Positions 2,823 through 62,752 of a stretch of 64,000 bases of DNA are shown here, in pieces. The first letter of the stretch is position 1. Each line of letters opens with the position of its first letter. Source of the stretch: Octopus vulgaris (lineage: Eukaryota); assembly GCA_951406725.2 (NCBI GenBank), contig OX597816.1:29574001-29638000 (forward strand). The letters are read 5' to 3'. The position numbers and the translations under genes were made by a program. Under the pieces are notes generated by a model. The model did no database searches. It worked only from the letters and a program-made list of their open reading frames with translations, and had not been told where the DNA came from.

Positions 2823-3480
2823 GGAATTACAACCGTGTTTCGTGGTCTGCTACCACAACATCTCCTTCATAGGATCCAGTTAGCTCAAGACATCATCAGG
2901 AGGAACCACGTCCGGTTTCGGCCTCTACTCCTCTACCGTTTTGACGTGGCAGGGCACCCCACTTTCGGAGGTGTCTTCAGCTCTGGTGTTGGGTGCATGT
3001 CTTCTTTCTTCTTTCTTCTGTTCCCTGGCCTCTTCGATATATCGACAGCGAGTGTCAGCCGGTGACTGACTTTCTTGTCAAATTTCTCCGTTTAAATACC
3101 TATTTCTTTATTACCCACAATGGGCTAAACACAGAGGGAAGAAACAAGGACAGACATAAGTATTAAGTCGATTACATCGACCCCAGTTCGTAACTGGTAC
3201 TTAATTTATCGACCCCGAAAGGATGAAAGGCAAAGTCGACCTCGGCGGGATTTGAACTCAGATCGTAAAGTAAATACCTGCCGCATAGGCTCCAGCAGGC
3301 AGCCCCAGCAAGTTGTCACGTGACACTGCCTCACCTTAACTGACTAGTGAAGGCGCGTAGTTTTAGCCCGCGCTTTTTCTAAACGACCGTCACCTGTCAG
3401 CAGGCAGCCCCAGTAAGTTGTCATGTGACACTGTCTCACCTTAACTGACTAGCGGAGGCGCATAGTTTTAGCTCGCGCTA
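2823..3480 (-). mobile_element. Unclassified GC-richer insertion, possibly the 5' UTR/ORF1 start of a retroelement, with a ~105-bp-period tandem duplication
   Basis: Interrupts the Dong/R4 endonuclease region. AGGCAGCCCCAG..GTTTTAGCYCGCGCT is repeated at ~3297-3374 and ~3401-3479. On the minus strand a basic reading frame (MRQVFKRRNLTRK...) appears once the SINE is removed. Confidence 0.35.
3102..3270 (-). mobile_element. 5'-truncated SINE of the dominant family (Tx1-like tail subfamily) with 9-bp TSD
   Basis: Body GAGTTCAAATCCCGCCGAGGTCGACTTTGCCTTTCATCCTTTCGGGGTCG and tail ...GTGGGTAATAAAGAAAT on minus. Flanked by TAAATACCT at 3093-3101 and 3271-3279. Confidence 0.85.
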
Positions 3481-4814: not shown

Positions 4815-5022
4815 CAAGCGCGCTGGGCGAAATGCTTAGCGATATTTCGTCTGTCGTTACGTTCTGAGTTCAAATTCCGCCGAGGTCGACTTTGCCTGTC
4901 ATCCTTTCGGGGTCGATAAATTAAGTACCAGTTACGCACTGGGGTTGATGTAATCAACTTAATCCCTTTCTCTGTCCTTGTTCGTCCCCTCTATGTTTAG
5001 CCCCTTGTGGGCAGTAAAGAAA
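4815..5022 (+). mobile_element. Dominant-family tRNA-derived SINE
   Basis: GGGCGAAATGCTTAGC..GAGTTCAAATTCCGCCGAGGTCGAC..CCTTTCGGGGTCGATAAATTAAGTACCAG..TTTAGCCCCTTGTGGGCAGTAAAGAAA; more than 10 homologous copies in the window. Confidence 0.85.
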
Positions 5023-5134: not shown

Positions 5135-6110
5135 ATATTGTTATATTTCGGAATGGTCATATTGCCAGTTTAGCCAATAAAAACACACGCACTATATATT
5201 TGGTGTTATTTTGCTTCAGTGATATTTATTTTTTACATTAATCTTAATCTTATTTCGGCCAAAGTTCTTTCGTCACACTCCTGTGACCGCATCAGTGGTC
5301 CTTTGTTTTCTTCTCACTTACTTGTGTCTCTCCTTACTAACCGTCAGCCATTTTGTATTTCTATTGTATGTCTTCATTTGCGCATGCTTATATCTCTATG
5401 TGCGTCTATGTTTATTTAGTGTGTGGGGGGGATGTCTGTAATATTTGTATCTTCTGGTTATATACATTCTTGTAATTTGTATTTTGTTTTTGTTGTTGTT
5501 GCTTTTGTTCTAATTTTGTTCATGTGTTTACATCCACCCATTATTATCATTACATATGCTTGTATGTATGTATAACAACAATATTAGTAATAATAATAAT
5601 AAATCTAATCGAGAAAAAAAAAAAAAAAAAAAAAAAAGAATATACATATACATATATATATATATATATACATACACATACATATACATATATATATATA
5701 CATATATACACACATATATACACATATACATACACATAGATATTCATTTCTATTTCTTTAATTACCTGTGTATTTATTATGTTTGCAGGATCCACTATTG
5801 TCATATGTTGTGGTGTGCGCTATTGCTCCATTCTAGTTTTCTATTCAGGCTAGGTTTATTTTCTATTATATGTGTAGCTTCTGTAATTTGTCTAATTGTT
5901 GCATCTGTTCTATGTGTGGACAATATCTTAATCTCTATGTTATTGATTGATCCCCCGTGTTCTTGTTCGGCGTGTTGGTACAGAATCGATGAGCTTTTAC
6001 CTTCCTTGAGTTGTCTCCAATGTTCATTCACCCGCTCACCAATGCTTCTTGCAGTTTCCCCTACGTATGTTACTGTCTTGTTACTGCATCGTCCCTCTAT
6101 ACATCTTATA
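5135..6110. repeat. Left arm of ~975-bp inverted repeat (Penelope 3' end)
   Basis: Reverse complement of 8400-9373. The differences I found are confined to the poly-A and poly-G tracts. Confidence 0.95.
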
Positions 6111-6412
6111 CTATAGACCACATTTCTGGCTTTACAGTTCGTTTGTGGGCTAAATCTACATACAGTGCAATAGTTATCCGTACAGAGAGTTCTACTAAAA
6201 GGATAGGTTCTACCAATTATAGATCTGATAGGGTTGCCTGGCTTTTCAACAACCTTAATTCTTAGTTTAAGTTTATCTAGGGTCCTTCTAAAGCGGTACG
6301 CTAGTTCACCTCCAGGGGTGGTGTCAACGAACATGACACTCTGGTATTTATGGCTATCATACCAAGAGTTGGCCTTCCTTATTTTCTTTTTGTCCTTTCT
6401 ATAGTGTTCCAT
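5801..6412 (-). CDS. Penelope-like Cys-rich linker + GIY-YIG endonuclease, in -1 frame relative to the RT
   Basis: [62 protein letters not shown]. Confidence 0.9.
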
Positions 6413-8499
6413 GACTTGTTCCTATAGAGTGGGCAAATCCCATTCCTATCATTACATAATATATTATCAAATTTCTTCATGGCTCCTTTGTATACTCTGA
6501 TCCTTTCTTTATGGCTGTAACCTGAGAACTGCATGCGGTGAATGAAATACTGTATGTGTCTCTTTAATTCTGTAGGCTCGCACATGCGTGACACATTTCT
6601 CATTATTCTGACGAGGTCTGCCATCAAAATATTGAATTTGGCATTGCCCGCAATGGCTGAGTTCCGGTGGATCAGGTATTTTGAGGCCATAGGTTTTGCA
6701 TAGTATGAATGAAGGATTTGGGTTTTATTTTTCACAATTTCTAGCCAGAGTTCAGTGTCTAGTACTGGTAGTCTATGGTTGGGGTGTTTAGTGGGGTAGT
6801 CTATTGTGACCTTAATACTCTGGTGGATGGAGTTAGCTATTTGCTGGATGCTCTCCATAGTATTAGTTTCTATTACTATATCAACCGTACTCTCTTGTGG
6901 GGGTGCCTTTACTACTATATTGATATCATCAACATAGCGAGAGTACATGTTTACGAGTATGGATTTCTGCAGTAGGCATTCTTTAAGCCTTCTGTCCCAC
7001 CATACCATGAAGAGGTTGGCCACATCACCAGCGATACTAACACCGATAGCTGCCCCCTCGTCCTGGGCATATATTTTATTATTAAATTTAAATGTGTGGC
7101 CTTTTAGGGTAACTCTTATACTAGCTCCTAGTGCATGTGCGATCATTTTCTTTACCTGATGGACATTTGCGGGGCTCCGTATGGCTCTGGTCCATCCGCG
7201 CCATCTTTCTATATGTGTCTTCCTAGCCATAGAAGTAATTGTAGGCGGTCTACCTCTTAAACATCTACTGGGGCAGAAACTACTAAGATTATGTTTATCT
7301 AAGTATTCACTATTATATGTCAGTCTAAGTAGGAGGCCCAGTTCTTCTGTGTCGACATTACAGAACTCCACCTGGCTCTCGTTGATCATCTCCACGCACT
7401 TCTCCACTGCAAAATCTACGTCAATCGATGGGTATAGGGATACCACATCCATGCTACCTACTATACATCCTGTCAAGTCACAAGTTTTGTTACAGTCACT
7501 GATCCTGCTTAGGAGATCTTCTGTGCTGTCACATACATCAGGTGACATCCTGATTATAGGGCGTATGATCATTGAGAGGAAGTAGGAGATTCTGTAATTG
7601 CTAGCGATATTCGCTCCACAGACTGGTCTTGTTGGTGGTCCTGCTATAGGGTCAGTAAAACCTTTATGGTCCTTGCGAAGTCCATACAGTGCCGGGATAT
7701 CATTGTTCCAGGCTTGGAAATTCTTTGCAGTACGTTTCTGAGGTCCCAGAACAATTGTCCACATCATCATGTGGGCATTGAGGACCTTTTCTCTCTCCTC
7801 ATGCACCTGTACAGTTGTTACTTTTGTATTGGCGATATGAGGTTGCATTGCCTGGATGTAGTTCGGTAAGCTGTCTATTGACATCCTGCCTGACTTATCC
7901 GTGGGAAGGCATATCACCTCTCCGTTCCTCGTGCGCTGAATGAGCTTCTGTAGGCCACATGCAGGTTTAATCCCTAGTTGTTGGGCATCTGTCTTATTCT
8001 GTCTCTGTCTCTTAATGTATAAACCTAAAATCTGTCTAAGTTTGGTCCTAGCTATAGTGAACTGTGCTTCCATGTGGTCATTAGTACGTCTTGGGATGTA
8101 TACCCTTTTGTTGAAGGGTAATGTTGTTGGATAAATTCGGTTCATGCAGTAAGTTTTGTCGCATACGTTGAAGAATTGAGTGTCAAAGGGATGGGTATAC
8201 ATGTCAATGGTCTCTCTAGGGTTATCTTCATTATCGTTACTGTTTCCAACATCAGCCTTCCTATTATTATTATCACCATTACCACTACTACTACTACTAC
8301 TAGTATTCCTATTACCACCACAACTATCACTACTATCCTCATTACTACTTCTACTGTTACCATCACCACTACTACTACCACTATTATTGTTATTACCTTT
8401 ATAAGATGTATAGAGGGACGATGCAGTAACAAGACAGTAACATACGTAGGGGAAACTGCAAGAAGCATTGGTGAGCGGGTGAATGAACATTGGAGACAA
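6379..8499 (-). CDS. Penelope-like reverse transcriptase (first ~33 aa are an artefact of the inverted arm; true element sequence starts at ~8399)
   Basis: Motifs LPTDKSG, LYGLRKDHK..PTRPVC, GSMDVVSLYPSI, QDEGAAIG..AGDVANLFM, YSRYVDD, LPVLDT and YYAKP, in a 706-aa stop-free frame. Confidence 0.92.
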   Translation of the reverse strand: MSPMFIHPLTNASCSFPYVCYCLVTASSLYTSYKGNNNNSGSSSGDGNSRSSNEDSSDSCGGNRNTSSSSSSGNGDNNNRKADVGNSNDNEDNPRETIDMYTHPFDTQFFNVCDKTYCMNRIYPTTLPFNKRVYIPRRTNDHMEAQFTIARTKLRQILGLYIKRQRQNKTDAQQLGIKPACGLQKLIQRTRNGEVICLPTDKSGRMSIDSLPNYIQAMQPHIANTKVTTVQVHEEREKVLNAHMMMWTIVLGPQKRTAKNFQAWNNDIPALYGLRKDHKGFTDPIAGPPTRPVCGANIASNYRISYFLSMIIRPIIRMSPDVCDSTEDLLSRISDCNKTCDLTGCIVGSMDVVSLYPSIDVDFAVEKCVEMINESQVEFCNVDTEELGLLLRLTYNSEYLDKHNLSSFCPSRCLRGRPPTITSMARKTHIERWRGWTRAIRSPANVHQVKKMIAHALGASIRVTLKGHTFKFNNKIYAQDEGAAIGVSIAGDVANLFMVWWDRRLKECLLQKSILVNMYSRYVDDINIVVKAPPQESTVDIVIETNTMESIQQIANSIHQSIKVTIDYPTKHPNHRLPVLDTELWLEIVKNKTQILHSYYAKPMASKYLIHRNSAIAGNAKFNILMADLVRIMRNVSRMCEPTELKRHIQYFIHRMQFSGYSHKERIRVYKGAMKKFDNILCNDRNGICPLYRNKSWNTIERTKRK

Positions 8500-9365
8500 C
8501 TCAAGGAAGGTAAAAGCTCATCGATTCTGTACCAACACGCCGAACAAGAACACGGGGGATCAATCAATAACATAGAGATTAAGATATTGTCCACACATAG
8601 AACAGATGCAACAATTAGACAAATTACAGAAGCTACACATATAATAGAAAATAAACCTAGCCTGAATAGAAAACTAGAATGGAGCAATAGCGCACACCAC
8701 AACATATGACAATAGTGGATCCTGCAAACATAATAAATACACAGGTAATTAAAGAAATAGAAATGAATATCTATGTGTATGTATATGTGTATATATGTGT
8801 GTATATATGTATATATATATATGTATATGTATGTGTATGTATATATATATATATATATGTATATGTATATTCTTTTTTTTTTTTTTTTTTTTTTTCGATT
8901 AGATTTATTATTATTATTACTAATATTGTTGTTATACATACATACAAGCATATGTAATGATAATAATGGGTGGATGTAAACACATGAACAAAATTAGAAC
9001 AAAAGCAACAACAACAAAAACAAAATACAAATTACAAGAATGTATATAACCAGAAGATACAAATATTACAGACATCCCCCCCCACACACTAAATAAACAT
9101 AGACGCACATAGAGATATAAGCATGCGCAAATGAAGACATACAATAGAAATACAAAATGGCTGACGGTTAGTAAGGAGAGACACAAGTAAGTGAGAAGAA
9201 AACAAAGGACCACTGATGCGGTCACAGGAGTGTGACGAAAGAACTTTGGCCGAAATAAGATTAAGATTAATGTAAAAAATAAATATCACTGAAGCAAAAT
9301 AACACCAAATATATAGTGCGTGTGTTTTTATTGGCTAAACTGGCAATATGACCATTCCGAAATAT

Positions 9366-13254: not shown

Positions 13255-13922
13255 CTAGCTGGCAGAATGGTTACCAGGCGGCGAGCTGGCAGAAACGTTA
13301 GCACACCGGGCGAAATGCTTAGTGGTGTTTCGTCTGCCGCTACGTTCTGAGTTCAAATTCCGCCGAGGTCGACTTTGCCTTTCATCCTTTCGGGGTCGAT
13401 TAAATAAGTACCAGTTACGCACTGGGGTCGATATAATCGACTTTATCCGTTTGTCTGTCCTTGTTCGTCCCCTTTGTGTTTAGCCCCTTGTGGGTAGTAA
13501 AGAAATAGGTATTTTGTCTGCTGCTACGTTCTGAGTTCAAATTCCGTCGAGGTCAACTTTGCCTTTCATCCTTTCGAGATCGATTAAATGTGTACAAGTT
13601 ACGCTCTGGGGTCGATATAATCGGCTTAATCCGTTTGTCTGTCCTTGCTTGTCACCCTCTGTGTGTAGCCTCTTGTGGGCAGTAAAGAAATAAGAATGGT
13701 TACCATGCCGAACAAGTTGTTTAGCGGCATTTCGTCCGTCTTTACGATCTGAATTCAAGTTCTGCCGAGGTCAACTTTGCCTTTCATCATTTCGAAGTTG
13801 ATGAAAAAAGTACCAGTTACGCACTGGGGTCGATGAAATAAGTACTAGTTAAGCACTAGAGACGATGTAATCACAAGACTTCTCCTCTAAAAGTTCAGGC
13901 CTTGTACCTATAGCAGAAAGCA
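13255..13922 (+). mobile_element. Nested SINE cluster: a young dimeric SINE (13277-13692) inserted in the head of an older SINE
   Basis: 13-bp TSD AGAATGGTTACCA at 13264-13276 and 13693-13705. Internal units 13324-13507 and 13508-13692. The older copy ends in a different tail (GGCCTTGTACCTATAGCAGAAAG). Confidence 0.88.
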
Positions 13923-20642: not shown

Positions 20643-21843
20643 TTAGGTTCTCAAAGTTCTTGCAGAATTTTTTATTTTGGTTTTAAATGGTGTATTTTCA
20701 AATTAATGTTCGTTAAATGACTTTATATATCATTATAAAGCCCATTTTTTGGTCTATCGAATCGTGTTACTCTTTTTTTTTTTTGAATAAGTAAGCCATT
20801 TTCTCCGGAACGTTGACTATAACATGGACAAAAAGCTAATTCGTACACTTTTCTTATTTCACTTCAAGCTAGGTCGAAAGGCTGTTGAAATAGCTCGCGA
20901 TATCAACGATACGTTTGGCCCAGGAACCGCTAACGACGGTACAGCACAATGGTGGTTCAAGAAATTTCGTAGCGGTGACTAGAGTCTTGAAGCTGATAAG
21001 AGCCTTAGTGGAAGCCAATCTATGCACAACTATTCGAGACCTTGCTTCTGAATTAGACGTAACATATACGACAATTTCCAACCACTTGAAAGAGATTGGG
21101 AAAAAATACTTGAGAAACGATAACCAGAAAAAAAAAACGCCGTTTCGAAGTGTGGTCTTCCCTTCTTTTACGCAACAAGAACGATCCGTTTCTCGACCAG
21201 ATTATGACTTGCTATGAAAAGTGGATTATTTTACGACAACCGGCGATGCTCAGCTCAGTGGTTGGACGCCGACAAAAGCCCCACAGCACTTCCCGAAGCC
21301 ACAGTTGCACATATTGAAGGTCATGGTGACATTTTGGTGGTCTGCGGCCGGTCTCATCCATCACAGCTTTTTGGATCCAGGCGAAACCATTACGGCGAGG
21401 AAGTACTGTCAGCAAATGGATGAAATGCATAAGAAACTCCGACAACAGCCAGCATTAGTCTATAGAAAAGGACCAAATATTCTCCACGACAACGCTCAGC
21501 CGCACGTCACACAACTGACCCTGCACAAGTTGAAATGCGAAACTCTGCCTCATCCGCCATATTCACCAGACCTTGCCTACCGACTATCACTTTTTCAAGC
21601 ATCTCGACAACTTCCTGCGTGAGAAATGCTTCGAAAACCAAGACGATTCCAAATACGCCTTCAACGACTTCATCGCCACCAGAACGCAGGATTTTTACGC
21701 TACTGGCACAAACTTATTTCGCGTAGGCAAAAGTTGGTTGATTCTGATGGTGGTTATTTCGATTAATTAAGTTTTGTTTGAGCCGGGATATGTGCAGCTG
21801 AATTTAAAAGTCAAAAACCGCCAGAACATTCTTGACAACCTAG
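20643..21843 (+). mobile_element. Near full-length mariner (Hsmar1/cecropia-like) with disrupted transposase
   Basis: Imperfect TIRs TTAGGTTCTCAAAGTTCTTG / CAGAACATTCTTGACAACCTA with TA flanks. ATG at 20824 gives MDKKLIRTLFLFHFKLGRKAVEIARDINDTFGPGTANDGTAQWWFKKF. Later motifs HDNAQPH, HPPYSPDLA and PTDYHFFKHLDNFL; several stops and frameshifts. Confidence 0.93.
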
Positions 21844-31250: not shown

Positions 31251-32369
31251 CTTGCACACGCACACGCACACACACACATACATACACATACATGCACACA
31301 CACCTAGGAGATGCATTTGAAAAGTATGCAACTTTATTTTTGTCCGCCAAAACTAATTCCACTTAGGCAAAATCCTTTTGGTGTGATGTGACGACACTCC
31401 TCTTACGTATACGTGAATATTTTCGCATTGGTAGGCTGCATCAGTTATACCTAGATTACCGACGTGTTGACTTTGCCTTTAATTCTTACGGGGTCGATAA
31501 ATTAAGAACCAGTGACGCACTGTGGTCGGTGAATCGACTTAATCCCTATGTCTGTCCTTGTTTGTCCCCTCTGTGTTTAGCCCCTTGTTCCGCAATAAAG
31601 AAATAAGAAACTGACGTGTGTGTATGTGTGTGCGTGTGTGATTGGACGTTTATGCGTCACATTTATTTAAACACAGGGATTTCAGCACAGTAGATACTGG
31701 CATTAAACTCAATGAAATCAGTCTGACTAGTTTCAATAGCAGCCCATTTTACTGATCACCAAGAGAATATATCTATCCGTGCGATATTCAGACTGGAGTG
31801 TCAGACTGGGTTAACGAATGTTTTGGAACAGTGTTGGTGTAAATTACAAATCGTCAAAAGCCAGTATTCTGTTTGGGACCAGGAATTTAATGAATCGATT
31901 TCTGGTGAAGCAAAAATAAATGCTGAAGATTACAAATCTTTTTTACTACAGATATGAACATCTTGCATAGCATCTACTTTCATGGCGTCAGCAGAAACGT
32001 GTTTTTAATACAATCCCATGATCAGTAATTTGTATTGCTTCTCCGTTTCTTCTAGTATCATGTATTGATTTGATTCATGATTCATGAACGTTTCCAACCT
32101 TTGCACTGCGATGCAAATAGCGACAGACAAAGCTAGTTTATTTGAGTTTGTGCTTACTATAAATAGCTGCAAACTGCTATATTTTTGTGTGGTCGGGAAA
32201 GTGATAAAGCGTTATTAAATGATGAAACTAGTGACATTGGTCGCATGATGATTATAACGAGGAAAAAGATCTTCCACAGTATCTACTTTTCACAGTAAGA
32301 TAAAAAAAAATTGTAAATGCTTCTTATATCTCTGTCTTATGTTGTGTAGTTTTATTGATTATTTTTATG

Positions 32370-54856: not shown

Positions 54857-57160
54857 GAATCAATGATATTCCAAGGAAAACCATCATGGATGTGTCTATT
54901 TCTGGCTGTCGTAACTAAGTGTGGAATAGAAACTTTTTCTTCCTATGAAGCATTATTCTGAGATATTTTTGGTTCTCCATTGATTTTCTTTCTCGCTTGG
55001 CGCGGTGAAAATACGGTTTCCATGTATTAAATATAATTTTGTAAAGTAAATTAGCCACGCTTTTTGCTGGTAATATTTAGTTGCACAATTAGAATATTGA
55101 ATTAAAGTCAACATAGTTTGACATCACATAAAGCATTTTATGTCTATTGATGGTGTACATAATCTAGTTTCAGGCCTAAAAGATGTTGCTTATTTTTATG
55201 TGTGAGTACGTATGCACGTGGTATAGAGCAAACTGTAAAGTACACAAAATATAATGTGACGTGTGGGTATATTTATTCTGTCCAACCCACGTTATTTGCA
55301 ACGAACAAAAGCAGTGTGTACTTAGTACGTGATTTAGAGTATAGTCATATTCTTTCAGCTCTTACTCTCTATATCTACTATAATTTCCATGTATGTTCGA
55401 TCATTCATTGGGTCATTTAGGTTTATAATAATAAATTAACTGCATATGATCTGCATTAGATCATAAACTGTTGCATATGATCTGATTCCCTTAAAGGAAA
55501 ACAACTGTAATTTACTTAATATTAATTCCCTGTTTGACTTAACATCTTCCGCTATTTGCTTTGTGGGCTCTTGAACTTTTAAAACTTGTTGGGACATAGT
55601 GCTCACAAAATTCTCTTTCTTGCACTATCCTATGTAGCAAAGATCTCCAAAACTAGCCCCATTTCCATCTCTCGAGAATTTGTCAAAGTATGCTTAGATC
55701 CGGTGAAAGACAGAGAATCATTTAATTAGAAGTTATTCTTTGCTTTTAAATTAATTAATAAATTTACAATTTATTTAATCTCAAGTTCACGATTATAAAC
55801 AAATAAACATATAAGATGGGCATCCTGTACTTACGTTATGATGACTATCAAGCAATTGTGCATAACTTTATTGACTTCAAGAAAGTCTAAAAATAATTCT
55901 TAATGATTGAGTGGAAAAACGTACTCGGAAACCTAGAAGTAAATAAGTTTTAAGTTAATGGATAAAAAGAAAGTATTTATCTTTACAAGAAAAGGAAGAA
56001 AATTTAAATAAAAATATAATTCCTTGTTTACTTTTGATTACTAATTCATTAACTAAAGAAATTTTTCGTATTTCTCTAGCAAAATTTCTGATTTAATTGG
56101 CTAGTAATTATTTTGATATATGTTCTTGATTACGATGTTTAATCGTTTAATAATTAATGATTTCGGATCATTATCCATGATCGAATTGAAAAATAACTAT
56201 TTAGATAGACATAACCTTAAAATCTAAATAATTATTGAGGATTTAATGGTATAGTATTTACGCACATTATTATTTATGCATAATTTTAAATTTCAATCTA
56301 TTATCTACAATGATATTTCGTTAAGTACAATCTTTTTATTCTGAAACTCACGAATTGGTTGACATTCCTCACCTAACTATGCCATTATATCTCTCTCACA
56401 TATAGTCCTGACCTCTTATTTTACATTCAGTAACGACGTAGACTCTGCATCGTTATCGAATGTGTGGTAAAAAGAGAGTTCAAAAGTACTTATGAAGAGG
56501 TATAACGTTACAGTTATTGTTCTTTTATAGCTCTTCCTTCCGTCGCATTTTCACAAGAATTGGATATCCGGTCAACTTGCTGGCAAAATCAAAAGCTATT
56601 ACTTTCCTTTCCTTTATTGAAACCATAATCTCTCAGATATAACTTTTGGGTTTTCTCCATTCCCCGATCTAGCAGATATTTAAGAAATTCTGTAAAATTA
56701 GGTACAATACGTGTTTAATAAAGTCATTTTTTATGCACTAGTGCTGCATCTGTGAATTAAGTACTTTGTTTTCAACTGTTTTCGTCATTTTCTTTAAAGG
56801 TGAACATATATCATCAACTAGACATATGAATATGTACATATATATGTACACACACACACACATACAAACATGGAAACGTATATTTATACACAGGCAAAAA
56901 TATTTGTATATATATGTGTGTGTGTATGTGTGTTCCTGCCTAGCGGTTAAAACCTAAGCACACTGATAATAAGCTGTATTAAAACCGAGAGATAGTCTTT
57001 ATAACATCACCTACCTAGACGATTGCACCGAGAGATGCACCACAACCAGCTCTACAGCATCCCACAAACAAGGCATCGATGCAGGATGGAACGAAACTAT
57101 CGTTGTAAGCAATAAAGTTTCTCGTATATTCCTTTTTCCCACTATTATTTTTTATGTATA

Positions 57161-57788
57161 CGAGGTGGTATCAAAAAGTTCCAGGAATAATTATGTTTAT
57201 TATAAAAAGATCTTAGGTAAGTAAGTTTTAACATCATCTTCGAAATTGTCGACTTGTGCAGTAATACACCGGTCCCAGCGTTCCTGTCACTTTTGGAATC
57301 CTGTCTGGAAGTCGTTTTCTGTAACCCAGTCGCAGTAGAACTCTCGATAGACATTCTGGATCTGGAGGACTAATTCTCGATGCACAGTACAACATTTCTC
57401 TTGGTGACACTCGTGGCAGGTCTTTCATATCACACATCGTTTTCCAGGTATGCTCTTCTGCTTTTGAAGCGCCCATTCCACTCGAAACATTGAGTACGAA
57501 CAATTGCCTCGTCACCGTCATCTTGCCGAAGCATGCTCAATGTCTCTGTAGCAGACTTCGTAATTTTGGCGCAAAATTTCACATTGGCACTTTGTTCCAA
57601 TTTCCTGTCCATGACAAAATCGCAGAGTACAGCATACATGTGATCGCAAGATCACAAATTACCACACCTATGTCACTCGGCACACTTCCTTATGAAGGCC
57701 ACTGCAAGCTCTAAATGCGCACGCACCTACGTGCTCATATCTGTTGGCGCGTTACATAACTAATGCGGGGATTTTTTATATCACCTCG
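57161..57788 (-). mobile_element. Internally deleted mariner with TIRs and TA duplication
   Basis: TA-CGAGGTGGTATCAAAAAGTTCC ... GGGATTTTTTATATCACCTCG-TA. Peptide 'MDRKLEQSANVKFCAKITKSATETLSMLRQ..CFEWNGRFKS'. Confidence 0.88.
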
Positions 57789-57981
57789 TATACATATGCG
57801 TGTGTGTGCGTGTGCGCGTATGTGTGTGTGTGTTTATATTCATTCTACGTATACGTTTATATATTTGTATAATACATCTTAGAGAAAGTCCTGTCCTCCT
57901 CGGAAGAATTCGCGGAATTTAAAATGACATACACGCAAGCAATATATTTTTACCTGGCCCCTAATCCCTGTTATATATATT

Positions 57982-58013
<32 letters not shown>

Positions 58014-58235
58014 GATGTGCAATGGCCCAGTTGTTAGGGCGGTCATAAGATCGGATTTCGATTCCCAGACCTAGTGTTGTGAGTGTTTTTTTAAGCGAAA
58101 AGACCTAAAGCCCAATGAGGGTCCGGCAGAGTACGGTGGCGAACCCTGCTGTATTCTTTCACCACAAATTTCTCTTACTCTCTCTTTCTGTTTTCCTTGT
58201 TCTTTATCACCTCGTCTTTATATGTTAATCTAGGC

Positions 58236-58310
58236 TTTCCTGCTGACGAGAGTTTCGCCAAGTAATTTATTTTATTTACTAAAAATTGCTTGAAACCATG
58301 GTACAGGAAA
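58236..58310 (+). ncRNA. Minimal type I hammerhead ribozyme with canonical core
   Basis: TTTCCTG-CTGACGA-GAGT..GCTT-GAAA-CCATGG-TA-CAGGAAA: 7-bp stem I, palindromic stem III, predicted GUA cleavage after 58303. Confidence 0.8.
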
Positions 58311-58452
58311 TAGAGGGTAAATGTTTTTGTTTTTCATTCCCTTTTGAAATTACCCCTAATAGTGGTTTGGAGTTTAACTACTCTTTCTAGCGGTTCAGAT
58401 GTCCTGTTATGGCCATCTCTTATGTGTTTAAATGTACACTGTATTTTTATAT

Positions 58453-60813
58453 GCGGAGACTTGCGAAGGGCCGATCATGCCTGGGAAGGTGAAAGAGGCT
58501 ATGGTTGACTGTAAAGCAGGGAAGTCTCCGGGACTTGATGGTCATCCTTACAAGCTATATAAATGTATGCCAGACATGTTCAGGCACCTACTTGCTAGCA
58601 TATACGCGAACTAGCAACAGAATGGGTTTATCTCCAGATCTGTGTGCCGGGGAGTGGTGACGTTGATCAGAAAGGACCTGGACAAGGGGGGACGTTTTAG
58701 TTAATTTCAGGCCCATCACTCTGTTAAACGCCGAAGTAAAGATTTTGGCGAAGGTTTTAGCAAAAAGGTTGGCGCGTGTCGCGAATGGTATAGTCGGGGA
58801 GGCACAGACATGTGCCATCCCAGGCAGAACCATTCAGGATAATCTCCATCTTATTCCCTATACCATAGAGAGGGTTGATGATAACTCTGGCAAAGGTGGG
58901 GCATTGGTGCATTTAGACCAATCTGATGCTTTTGACAGTGTCGACCATCGATACCTGGAGAGTGTGCTTACTCGTTTTGGTCTGGGCCTTGGCTTCTTCA
59001 GGTGGTTCATCGCTCTGTATCACAACATTGACTCGATAGTTCGGGTGAACGGTTTCCTCTCGAAGCCGTTCTGCATCAGACGCTCGGTTCGTCAAGGATG
59101 CCCCCTCCCACCACTTCTGTATGTGGTGGCTCTTGAGCCCCTACTGCGAAAGTTGAGTGACATTGAGTGACATCCCAAGAGAACCAGGTTTAGAGGAGCT
59201 TGTTTCGGCTTGCGTGGGTGATATCACTATCAGCGTTACCACAGTAACACGCCTACGTGAAGTGGGTAAGGCTATTGAGGTTTACGAGACAGTGGCAGGA
59301 GCAAAGATCAACCGGGAAAACTCAGTCGGCTTGCAGCTCGGAACCTGGATTTGCAAGTCGGTGCCTTCAGACAGCATTGTTGGGCGCTGGACGGAGAGAC
59401 CGGATAAATTACTGTGAGTCTGGTTTGTAACAGGCCTCCAGTTCGAGCGGGGTTGCTGCAATAGTCAAGACCTGGTCTTGGCAGTGGCTATCACTGAAAG
59501 AGAGGGCGGATGTGACCAATGTGTTTATCTCATCGGTCATTACCTACCGCTTGACGTCGTGTCCTGTCCAGATTCGTGGGTGATCAGGCTGGAGAGGCAG
59601 CTCTTTCGATTATTGCGGAAGGGCAAATCGCTACTTGTGAAACGCTCTATCTGTTGTCACAAGCCGTTAAATGGAGGTTTAGGGATGCCTTGGTTAATGA
59701 TGCGCAGGCATGCGTTGAGGTTGAGGCACCTCTGGATTCTCCTCGATAGTGTCCAGACAATTGTTCCTCGATAGTGGCCAGACAATTGTTCCTCGATAGT
59801 GGCCAGACAATTGTTCCCCGAGTTCAAACGTTTTTGCGAACAAGAAGTCTGGTGTTCTCGTAGACCGAGGTCGAGTAAGTGGCATATGGAGTGTTGTAAG
59901 GCTCTCCTGCTATTCCGGTGCTCGGGCAACGCCAGCGATCGAGTTCTACATCTTTTTATATAGTAGGTTGGTAGAGTCTGAATGTGAAGATGGCCTGGGA
60001 GCGACCCTAGATATCGGGTATATTCAGCTTGACAACCTGTTCCGTCGTGCATTCGGGTTGAGAACGTTGGACAATTTCCAAAGGACCTTGATCTGGCACT
60101 GCTACAGGGGCGCCTTGCCTGTTTGGGATAAACTCCCAAGAGATGGAAAGTCACACTCTTCGATCTGTCTAAGATGCGGGCCGTTGATAGGGAAACCGTC
60201 CCTCACGCTATTGTCCAGTGCCCGGAGATATTTGAAATGTGGGTTTATGCTGAACACCTGTTGTCCGGCGAAGGAAGAGTACAGCTGTCGACTGGGTCAA
60301 TTATAAGAATTGACCCACCGGAATTTTTAACAAATGAAGGTAAGGATTGTTTTCTCACTGTTGATGCAATAGCGAAAGAGGCAGTATGGAAGACTAGGAT
60401 AAAAGGGATTAAGACGAGTAACTTTATCTCCGGCCACGTGTTAAGATCGTTTTTCACTTTTTACTTGAAAAGGTTAAGTGTGGCTGGAGAAGTGATGCCT
60501 GTTGGTGAGGGTGTTCAAAAGAAGATGGAGGCATGTTGCACAAGTGCTGTGCGTGCAAAGAACTATGGGAATATGCTATAGAAGAAAACAAGAGATGAAA
60601 GAAGTACCAGCGATAGATCGGGGCTGATGGGGTCGGAATGTGGCCTCATCATCGTTACATTTGTGTCATATTTGTATTGTGTATTTCATTCGATTCTTAT
60701 ATATTTTATATCATTTTTATGTTCATATTTATGTAATATCATAACGTGTTACTGGCCCTAATCAGTTGTTTTGTCCCATTCTTTGTGTAGCCCCCTGCAG
60801 GTAATAAAGAAAT
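58453..60813 (+). mobile_element. 5'-truncated Tx1-clade (L1 group) non-LTR retrotransposon, ORF2 pseudogene + 3' UTR
   Basis: 'GKSPGLDG', 'FRPITLLNAEVKILAKVLAKRL', 'QTCAIPGRTIQDNLHL', 'LDQSDAFDSVDH', 'SVRQGCPL', 'GGLGMP', and CCHC motif 'CLRC...ETVPHAIVQCP'. A 25-bp triplication lies at 59741-59815. Confidence 0.9.
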
Positions 60814-60814
60814 T

Positions 60815-60980
60815 GGTATTTAGTCTGTCTTTACGTTCTGAGTTCAAATTCCGCCGAGATCGACATTGCCTTTCATTGTTTCGGGATCGATATATTAAAT
60901 ACCAGATGCGAGCTGAGGTTGATCTAATCGACTGGCCCTTCTCCAAAAATTTGTGACCTTGTGCCTAGAGTAGAAAAGAA
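60815..60980 (+). mobile_element. 3' part of an older SINE beginning exactly at GGTATTT
   Basis: GGTATTTAGTCTGTCTTTACGTTCTGAGTTCAAATTCCGCCGAG...CCTTGTGCCTAGAGTAGAAAAG. Confidence 0.85.
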
Positions 60981-62074
60981 TAATTTATTCAAATATCAAA
61001 TCGTATTAAACCTTTGAAAAAAAGATTTATCTACGACTAAAAGGCAAACAACACTTGAGTTGAGTGCATAAGTTTAACATATATCGTATAAACACATTTT
61101 ATGAGGTAATAGTAGTCGATCTACTTGCCAGAAATAGTTATAACTCATACCACAATCATTCACAAGAATTCTAAAGTAGTGTAAACACATTAAATAACAC
61201 AGTCCTGAACATCAAAAGAAAATTATTATCAAGGCCAGAATTCTTTGATAAAAGATTTGTTGTATCGGATTTGACAATTTTTTCGGAAGAAAAAGCAGCA
61301 ATCGAAACTTGCTGAGAAGAAAATAATCTTTTTTCTTGGAGCGTTTCTAATCCAGTGTATTTTCTTCTCCTTTGGGTTATTGCGGTAATGCAGCGACATA
61401 CCATTTAATGGATCTTTTAATCAATTTCAATAGTTTGTTGGATATTTATTTCATCGTTTTTTAAATGTACGAAATATTAAGTCGATATTGACATAATGGG
61501 AAATAAATCTTTGGAACATAAAGGACAATCCTATTCGAATATACCTTCCCTCGTTCCACACTGCTGTAAATACATACACACATACACACAAAACAATACA
61601 CACAGGCGCAAGTATGCACACACATATTTGTTTGCATGTATTCATATTCACAGTGGAGCAATTCAATATTTATTAGTAAATTTAAATGAAAAAGTACACG
61701 CGAAATATTCACATGCCTATGGCTTGGCAAATCAGCCATCCATGGGAAAATACATTTATATATCGAAGAGACACAGCATTATTTGTATTTCAAGATGTAA
61801 CTGTAAGTGATATGTATATGATGTGTGTTTTTGTGGGTATGTTATGTGTGTTTTAGGTGTGTTTTTATGTGTGTGTTTTGTGTGCTTTTATGTGGGATTT
61901 TATGTAACAAGTATTCATAAAATTGAGGCTTTAGTAAGATATATTACTCCAAAATACTATGAAGTAAGAGTGAACCCAGATCAGATGGTTCCAAAGCACT
62001 CTATAATTACACACCATTTCCCTTCAGAAATGTGCAGTAAATAAAAATTGATCTTAAGATAGTTGCTCATGTAA

Positions 62075-62550
62075 GGCAGCGAGCTTGAAGAATCGTTAGC
62101 ACGTCGGGCGAAATGCTTAGTGGTATTTCGTCTGTCGTTACGTTTTGAGTTCAAATTCTGCCGAGGTCGACTTTGCCTTTCATCCTTTTGGGGTCGATTA
62201 AATAAGTACCAGTTATGCACAGGAGTCGTTATAATCGACTTAATCCGTTTGTCTGTCTTTGTTTGTCCTTTCTGTGTTTAGCCCCTTGTGGGTAGTAAAG
62301 AAATAGGTATTACGCACTGTAATCGACTTAATTCGTTTGTCTGTCCTTGTTTGTCCCCTCTATGTTTAGCCCCTTGTGGGTAATAAAGAAATAGGTATTT
62401 CGTCTGCCGCTACGTTCTGAGTTCAAAATCGTCCGAGGTCGACTTTGCTTTTCATTCATTCGGGATCGGTAAATTAAGTACCATTTGATCTCATCGACTG
62501 GTTCCCTCCGCCACAATTTTGGGCGTTGTGCCTAGTGTAGAAAAGAATAT
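62075..62550 (+). mobile_element. Nested SINE array (head, two Tx1-like tails, then old-type 3' end)
   Basis: Junctions GAAATA|GGTATT at 62306 and 62394; the final segment ends TTGTGCCTAGTGTAGAAAAG. Confidence 0.85.
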
Positions 62551-62752
62551 GCTTGTTCCCGTGTAACTATTATTTGTTCTTAATACATTTTTCATACACA
62601 AAATCATTTAATATATTTGGATATACAGATTCACCATTACCATTTTTCTTCGCAAGAAGAGACATGCTCAAAGTGGATCTAACTTTCCCAATAAAGCATC
62701 GTTTAATGCAAATCTTTGGTAACTACACACATGTCACGCGCACTCACACGCA

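Follow-up and report, generated by a model that had tools for sequence, protein, structure and literature searches.

A Tx1-type LINE of Octopus vulgaris specific for the head of an abundant SINE, with a one-base target switch in its youngest clade

A 64,000-nucleotide stretch of Octopus vulgaris DNA (contig OX597816.1, positions 29,574,001 to 29,638,000; this whole stretch is called the window, and its own numbering is used below) contains the remnant of a long interspersed nuclear element (LINE) of Tx1 type that runs directly into part of a short interspersed nuclear element (SINE). Searches of the 2.8-Gb assembly support the view that this Tx1 family is specific for one site in the head of the SINE, GGTATTT at position 49 of the 232-nt element, and show that the target of its youngest clade has switched to CGTATTT. 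A first-pass annotation of the window had located the motif inside the SINE head and had suggested that the family prefers this abundant SINE. Both ideas hold, the second because all 40 older 3' ends studied lie at the site, the site is duplicated around insertions, and the host SINEs show about ten times the divergence of the young LINEs they carry. A LINE is regarded as target-specific when one site makes up well over 20% of its flanks and duplications are present (PMC4494074). Here the site was found at 40/40 3' ends, and at 27/29 and 16/16 5' ends in two sets of copies; the background frequency of GGTAT, counted over 600 kb of genome sampled at even spacing, is 0.08% of positions.

The older copies were collected with the 3' untranslated region (UTR) as the only query, and the 42 matches studied, at 40 loci, are the best 40 of 153 candidates. 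SINE position 49 (GGTATTTCGTCTG) forms the 3' junction at every one of them, and by a motif test SINE body continues beyond it in 37; one of the remaining three is degenerate, one is interrupted by another element and one meets N. Eleven loci keep the 5' end, all of them preceded by the site (one in degenerate form), and the repetition of the same sequence upstream of copies with an intact 5' end defines a target-site duplication of 13-16 bp. A separate search with the 5' UTR, from which 30 loci out of 116 candidates were read (7 of them shared with the 3'-UTR set), found the site at 27 of 29 5' ends by strict match, and the other two fit it by eye. The whole composite of SINE and LINE is in four cases (L032, L042, L051 and L066) bordered by the host SINE's own duplications. 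One young LINE copy of only 39 nt lies directly behind a SINE head, and one off-target copy of 130 nt was found at GATATT with a 16-bp duplication. SINE-homing LINE copies also occur in tandem, at L320 with a lone copy of the site between them, and at C3:153112101 and 153118551.

The remnant in the window belongs to the older, G-site group. Its broken second open reading frame (ORF2; 58451..60581, forward strand) extends from the reverse transcriptase (RT) to the C-terminal zinc finger, matches RVT_1 with an E value of 1e-18 and aligns in six tblastn pieces with an intact relative. The 5' part of the LINE and the head of the host SINE are missing, and no further upstream piece of the LINE was found within the 64-kb window. 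The 3' UTR (60582..60814, forward) has AATAAA 6 nt before its end and no poly(A), and its final ~65 nt are the tail common to the SINE and to sister Tx1 families. It was correctly seen earlier that the UTR enters this tail without any SINE body in between; the tail ends at 60814 and not at 60813, and the shared stretch, then given as ~70 nt, is a 44-nt core of 79-84% identity that reaches ~65 nt once a gap of ~10 nt is allowed. The LINE tail ends in AAAGAAATT, whereas the SINE tail ends in AAAGAAATA. Next to it, at 60815..60981 (forward), lies the 3' part of a host SINE with the old tail, which begins at head position 49 with GGTATTT. The duplicated target site, in its 3' copy, makes up the first 13-16 nt of this piece.

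In young copies of the family a putative ORF1 of 520 aa precedes an ORF2 of 1134 aa, which has the domains Exo_endo_phos (an APE endonuclease), RVT_1 and zf-RVT, as in the Tx1 clade, and ORF2 is unbroken in 3 of the 20 young copies examined. Tx1 elements have a separate ORF1, often with a CCHC knuckle; a zf-CCHC match with an E value of 0.0055, below the cut-off, was seen in an old copy and none in a young one. Judged by protein similarity, the LINE appears closer to Tx1 than to L1, since the bit scores of an RT fragment are 176 with a protein named TX1 149 kDa and 72 with human L1. The comparison with the TX1-named protein gave 33% over 708 aa, and the nearest named relative is from Argonauta hians.

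The young copies are independent insertions and no copied composite, because divergence among them amounts to 0.6% for the LINE but to 5-6% for the host SINEs. Measured at non-CpG sites as difference from the column-wise commonest letters, divergence is 0.5-0.6% in 15 young LINE copies, 6.1% in the heads of 15 hosts and 5.3% in the bodies of 14. These copies sit at CGTATTT, not GGTATTT, a variant that belongs to a newer SINE subfamily; it is present in about 12 of 32 monomers with the new tail and in 0 of 15 with the old tail. C-type heads host all 16 intact young 5' ends, for which the binomial p is 3.5e-6 given that 19,546 exact heads in the genome are of C type and 23,283 of G type (45.6% C). 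After 71 exact tails of the clade the next letters are CGTAT in 49, GGTAT in 14, TGTAT in 2 and something else in 6; the 14 G-site copies are all of older types, 82-92% identical to a young copy, and there is no C site among the 40 older copies. In trees built on 330-350 nt the C-site copies form a clade nested among the G-site copies; one tree left out four split or short copies, and in the other the short copies produce false long branches. Twenty loci that had been chosen for being C-type were excluded from this evidence. We conclude that the youngest clade has exchanged the target GGTATTT for CGTATTT; in the C-terminus of ORF2 the old and young subfamilies are about 85% identical.

The SINE with the Tx1-type tail has 86,814 exact tails in the genome, and as only exact matches are counted its copy number is at least that. 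GGTAT follows 39,027 of these tails (45%), AGAA follows 7% and CGTAT 439, so that the enrichment downstream of tail copies which the first-pass annotation called for is there; a slightly different pattern gives 30,052 tail-plus-site joints. Among 39 tails in the 600 kb of evenly spaced genome, 14 are at the site (12 by script and 2 by eye) and 2 at a second landing site in the head, AGAA at position 16, which had been missed before. Exact doubled heads were found in 48 cases, and of the 30 that were read 26 have a Tx1-type tail, 24 of which end at the site; about ten repeat host-private letters on both sides. Full-length SINEs have thus been inserted into other SINEs at position 49, and in 4 of the 30 a C-type SINE lies within a G host, therefore the two SINE types overlapped in time. 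The earlier expectation that the SINE inserts into its own relatives is accordingly right as an occurrence but not as a rule. A flanking repeat of at least 9 nt, mostly 13-18 and often starting with GGTA, AGAA or TATA, surrounds 37 of 51 full-length SINE insertions. The element is short, of high copy number, flanked by duplications and ends in a LINE-related tail, the features by which SINEs are recognised. Its head has words resembling A and B boxes, which fit the consensus, and the first 90 nt fold with a z score of -4.3; neither ARAGORN nor Rfam found a tRNA in it. It may be one of the families OR1, OR2 or OK, or a MetaSINE-like family.

Copies of this SINE occur at several places in the window. 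A full-length one with the Tx1-type tail (62074..62305) is followed by a second unit with an internal deletion, from GGTATT to the Tx1-type tail (62306..62393), and then by a SINE body that begins with GGTATTT and extends to the old tail (62394..62548), all on the forward strand. A two-unit array of Tx1-tail SINEs lies within an older SINE at its second site (13264..13705, forward); the unit at 13276-13507 is full, that at 13508-13692 starts at GGTATTT, and the array is bordered by the 13-bp repeat AGAATGGTTACCA at 13264-13276 and 13693-13705. Single Tx1-tail copies are found on the minus strand at 3094..3268 (5'-short, then GGTATTT in non-SINE DNA), and on the forward strand at 4817..5022 (followed by a TA microsatellite, which is not a SINE site) and 31466..31605 (5'-short, then AGAAAC in non-SINE DNA). 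The letters after the tails at 5022, 13692 and 31604 are TATATA, AGAATGG and AGAAAC. GGTATT follows four of the seven SINE tails of the window, and three of these continue into SINE sequence. The joins reported earlier were all seen again (GGTATT after the tail at 13508, 62306, 62394 and, on the minus strand, 3100, and GGTATTT at 60815), except that the DNA beyond the one at 3100 is not SINE. Old-tail SINEs are flanked by duplications that start with AATATT or AATATA (60957-60985, 62524-62552 and many other loci), and because of this another LINE with another preference is likely to have moved them.

We think it rather probable that the Tx1 element enters the SINE head by target-primed reverse transcription, likely helped by pairing of read-through RNA, and that the SINE borrows this machinery with a looser aim. 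The steps of nick, pairing, joining and array growth are what we infer from the observed site, duplications, independent insertions, SINE-in-SINE insertions and switch. The endonuclease is predicted to nick the bottom strand just before position 49, and the top strand would be cut 13-16 nt downstream. With AATAAA 6 nt before the end of the element, the mRNA would extend into the host site, and the terminal base of the DNA primer would then be paired with the first base of the read-through, the very base that has switched. We favour that endonuclease and RNA pairing would both act, with the pairing sharpening a looser nick preference. In favour of pairing, there is no poly(A) at any junction, and 4 of the 37 insertions with duplications have extra letters that match the usual read-through. 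SINE tail variants also differ in the motif they meet even outside SINEs, TAGT tails preceding GGT 28 times and AGA 6 times and CAAT tails GGT twice and AGA 9 times (Fisher p 2e-4, 197 tails classed). Read-through pairing raises insertion by R2Ol (PMC6530143), and in L1 priming the last four bases of the primer matter most (PMC3649969).

Several observations weigh against this account. Most SINE copies land outside SINEs (23 of the 39 sampled tails), at GGTA, AGAA or TATA motifs; in about 6 of the 24 doubled-head cases the letters of the two copies disagree; and the extra letters seen in three insertions are not those of read-through. The SINE tail ends in A, not T, and it scores 82, 80, 75 and 75 against sister families but 65-68 against the SINE-homing groups. 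The endonuclease has changed along with the switch, for which reason the protein alone could explain it. In young LINE copies the 5' and 3' copies of the site sometimes differ at positions 12-16, and part of the 5' copy may be the LINE's own sequence. Finally, 29 of the 40 older copies lack the 5' end, and most of these have no SINE head upstream. The eleven end-complete older copies span 1.7-5.3 kb of a full 5.3 kb, and since up to 3.6 kb has been lost internally from them it is likely that later deletion removed the 5' ends of the 29; three of these retain the upstream SINE, joined through a deletion. The 5' end of about 20 of the 29 is directly behind a SINE tail, as can happen because tail-site joints are as common as heads. 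A SINE-headed LINE master behind these copies was considered and rejected, as the upstream units do not follow LINE identity. Transduction in 3' direction of the LINE together with SINE body was also rejected, the longest flank matches in the 20 testable copies of the 29 being 2-10 nt and like those of a shuffled-pair null (mean 6.3).

How the SINE arrays arose is the part of this account where the alternative comes closest. If the overhang at the target is identical to positions 49-62 of the incoming SINE, the cDNA would mostly join there, adding one unit of 184 nt (217 nt at the AGAA site) and no second head, and unequal exchange or read-through copies would then lengthen the array. Most SINE arrays do have one head only, and one-headed arrays would be the common structure because such joining adds units without heads. 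It could also be that the arrays come mostly from multimeric masters or from local tandem duplication and not from repeated targeted insertion, a reading to which we give nearly an even chance. Adjacent units are 92.9% identical against 90.5% between arrays, and 13 of 27 adjacent pairs are above the 95th percentile of unrelated pairs; exact doubled heads are rare (48) beside the 30,052 exact tail-site joints, and tandems of heads alone and of tails alone occur. For the remaining 14 pairs the similarity does not exceed that of unrelated units, joints run into old-tail and new-tail bodies alike, and doubled heads with host-private duplications require insertion. Local duplication or read-through multimers thus contribute to the arrays, since adjacent units are closer than unrelated ones, and of the self-nested arrays proposed at first the insertion stands through the doubled heads while close kinship in 13 of 27 pairs limits its share; the result for the LINE is unaffected either way. 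Examples of the partial tandems are a 66-nt head unit repeated five times (C14:84691114-84691413) and a 78-nt tail unit repeated five times (L051:3821-4133).

Targeting could also be a matter of protein only, the endonuclease reading the site, its amino-acid changes making the switch, and the motifs of the SINE reflecting several Tx1 partners; this has an appreciable chance of being correct, if below even. F143S, D148A, a 2-residue insertion and S200T are common to all C-site copies checked. The young endonuclease (L280:3686-4420) has GDSN in 15 of 15 young copies, and older copies and L1 have GDFN; F143S lies between two catalytic residues, and S200T aligns without gaps to T200 of L1, in a minor-groove hairpin (PMC1950540). 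Sister families with the same tail use other sites, and the endonuclease is described as the main determinant of target choice (PMC4494074). Against protein-only targeting, and in favour of RNA pairing, a sister that is 73% identical and has almost the same endonuclease hairpin hits an unrelated site. A LINE group with a CAAT tail hits GGTA, yet SINEs with a CAAT tail favour AGAA, and the SINE takes short motifs, whereas the LINE keeps almost without exception to the 13-mer.

The tail is native to Tx1 and was not left by a SINE that landed there, because sister Tx1 families, 58-73% identical to the SINE-homing one, carry the same kind of tail at other targets: (TTA)n (29 of 30 loci read), ACATGGAGGAAA, AGAGCTAACAA and GAAATTCGGCAAAG. 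A SINE stub that merely happened to lie at this place, the case that the first-pass annotation had named as fatal to its idea, is thereby removed. Its further proposal that the SINE took its tail from the SINE-homing family is not fully supported, as the SINE tail fits the sisters better. In comparisons with 13 Tx1 tails the SINE tail scored above 300 shuffles every time; no LINE with the exact SINE tail was found among 317 tails examined, and an exact 35-mer for the second old LINE group returned five loci, all known already. The donor of the tail would therefore seem to be the Tx1 radiation, and not provably the homing family. One could go further and suppose that sister families mainly mobilise the SINE and that the homing family merely shares its target. 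Beside the better tail match, the sisters L295 and L307 end in AAAGAAATA as the SINE does, and the copies of the homing family number just a few hundred, with 153 candidates from the 3'-UTR search and 116 from the 5'-UTR search. We find this rather unlikely, as the main motif and the duplication length of the SINE are equal to those of the homing family, the sisters examined use (TTA)n, ACATGGAGG, AGAGCTAAC or GAAATTCGG, and one SINE (L330) bears the tail variant of the homing family. In this single case the tail has the three letters that characterise the young LINE clade, and a template switch between SINE and LINE RNA is a possible origin.

A small GCCC/GGG(U/C) hairpin is present in five of six tails, and single folds are mostly no better than shuffles (z +0.5 to -2.4). 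The young sister family in (TTA)n (L225-L274, on C50, C47 and C4:93.80-93.83 Mb) has an ORF2 of 1145 aa, open in many copies, and forms tandem arrays with a 5.87-kb unit, ten of them on contig C50. Two or three more Tx1 families (L295-L300, L306, L309-L314) are inserted in one repeat at ACATGGAGGAAA and AGAGCTAACAA, the latter point ~300 nt beyond the former. One of these, whose ORF2 has 1132 aa, occurs as 5.27-kb tandems and is located after the tail of a further family.

The weakest explanation, that a single master composite of SINE head, Tx1 and SINE body was copied whole with no target preference, suits the SINE on both sides of every copy and the lack of a head upstream of most 5'-lacking copies, but it is largely refuted and very improbable, as the divergence of the hosts is about ten times that of the young LINE, hosts carry either tail, no duplication beyond the shuffled-pair null surrounds the 5'-lacking LINE plus SINE body (20 of 29 testable), and upstream unit identity shows no relation to LINE identity (rho 0.03, 19 copies).

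Returning to the view that endonuclease and RNA pairing act together, we offer a tentative extension, with the odds somewhat against it: the Tx1 radiation may inherit its site through the read-through RNA, so that one lineage became locked on the head of the SINE it mobilised and tracked that head from GGTATTT to CGTATTT.

The nearest known system is that of Tx1-Mar and SINEU in crocodilians, which target Mariner-N4_AMi (PMC4494074). There too a Tx1 and SINEs that it probably mobilises share a target in another interspersed repeat, and tandem insertions sandwich one duplication; the octopus pair works like it without being a member. The crocodilian target is a DNA transposon hit in two broad regions and the SINE heads are of U1/U2 type, whereas the octopus target is one base in the SINE's own head, with a one-base switch on record, and no snRNA-type (small nuclear RNA) head was found by Rfam. 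For SINEU-1 the available text reports no LINE with its 3' end, whereas the octopus pair shares a tail. Tx1L in Tx1D of Xenopus, Keno in U2 and Kibi/Koshi in microsatellites are likewise APE-type with strict sites, as is an octopus sister family in (TTA)n, and the Tx1 targets listed in the part of that paper available include no tRNA-type SINE, which the octopus target may be (PMC4494074). R1Bm and R2Ol read-through and the snap-velcro model of L1 similarly let the RNA 3' end pair and aid priming (PMC6530143, PMC3649969), on fixed targets (rDNA, ribosomal DNA, and T-tracts), whereas in the octopus such pairing would let one subfamily hand its site on to the next. Tandem SINEs and SINE-derived satellites are also head-to-tail arrays lengthened by unequal exchange (PMC10702118); the unit boundary in the octopus, unlike theirs, is a retrotransposon target site with duplications. 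The tRNA-derived octopus SINEs OR1, OR2 and OK (Ohshima and Okada 1994, cited in PMC4824008 and PMC4758252) resemble ours in abundance. An octopus repeat annotation lists L1-Tx1 families without targets in the portion available (PMC13282606), and the available portions of PMC8967140, PMC4758252, PMC4824008 and PMC8869645 hold nothing on the Tx1/SINE pair. We found no published description of it, though Repbase Reports and subscription papers, which lay outside the search, may hold one.

Directly upstream of the LINE remnant, at 58020-58450, are pieces of two other high-copy repeats, one of which also interrupts the LINE in L056. Elsewhere in the window, a 712-aa RT frame on the minus strand at 5514-8993 occurs with a GIY-YIG-like frame repeated in inverted orientation, and is probably Penelope-like. 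What we assume from motifs to be remnants of Mariner-like transposases lie at 21218-21622 and 57160-57790.

The way in which site-specific LINEs change their targets, still an open question, is mostly studied by comparing distant families. The octopus pair offers something new, a datable one-base target switch with intact copies. As the old and young subfamilies differ by one target base and a few endonuclease changes, with RNA pairing as a competing explanation, protein and RNA control are separable by swaps. A SINE of ~100,000 or more copies gains a likely LINE partner and an insertion rule, by which tandem arrays with 184- and 217-nt units would be explained genome-wide, and the LINE has in its likely parasite a landing site that is renewed. 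The two are unlikely to be engaged in an arms race, because a few hundred LINE copies exert little selection on SINEs of such number. Should RNA pairing determine the site, this would be relevant to programmable LINE-based insertion. If the site is in addition inherited through the read-through RNA, the supply of targets would be self-feeding, each LINE or SINE master would pass its landing site to its progeny, and the family would be a naturally reprogrammed, RNA-guided and site-specific LINE with intact copies.

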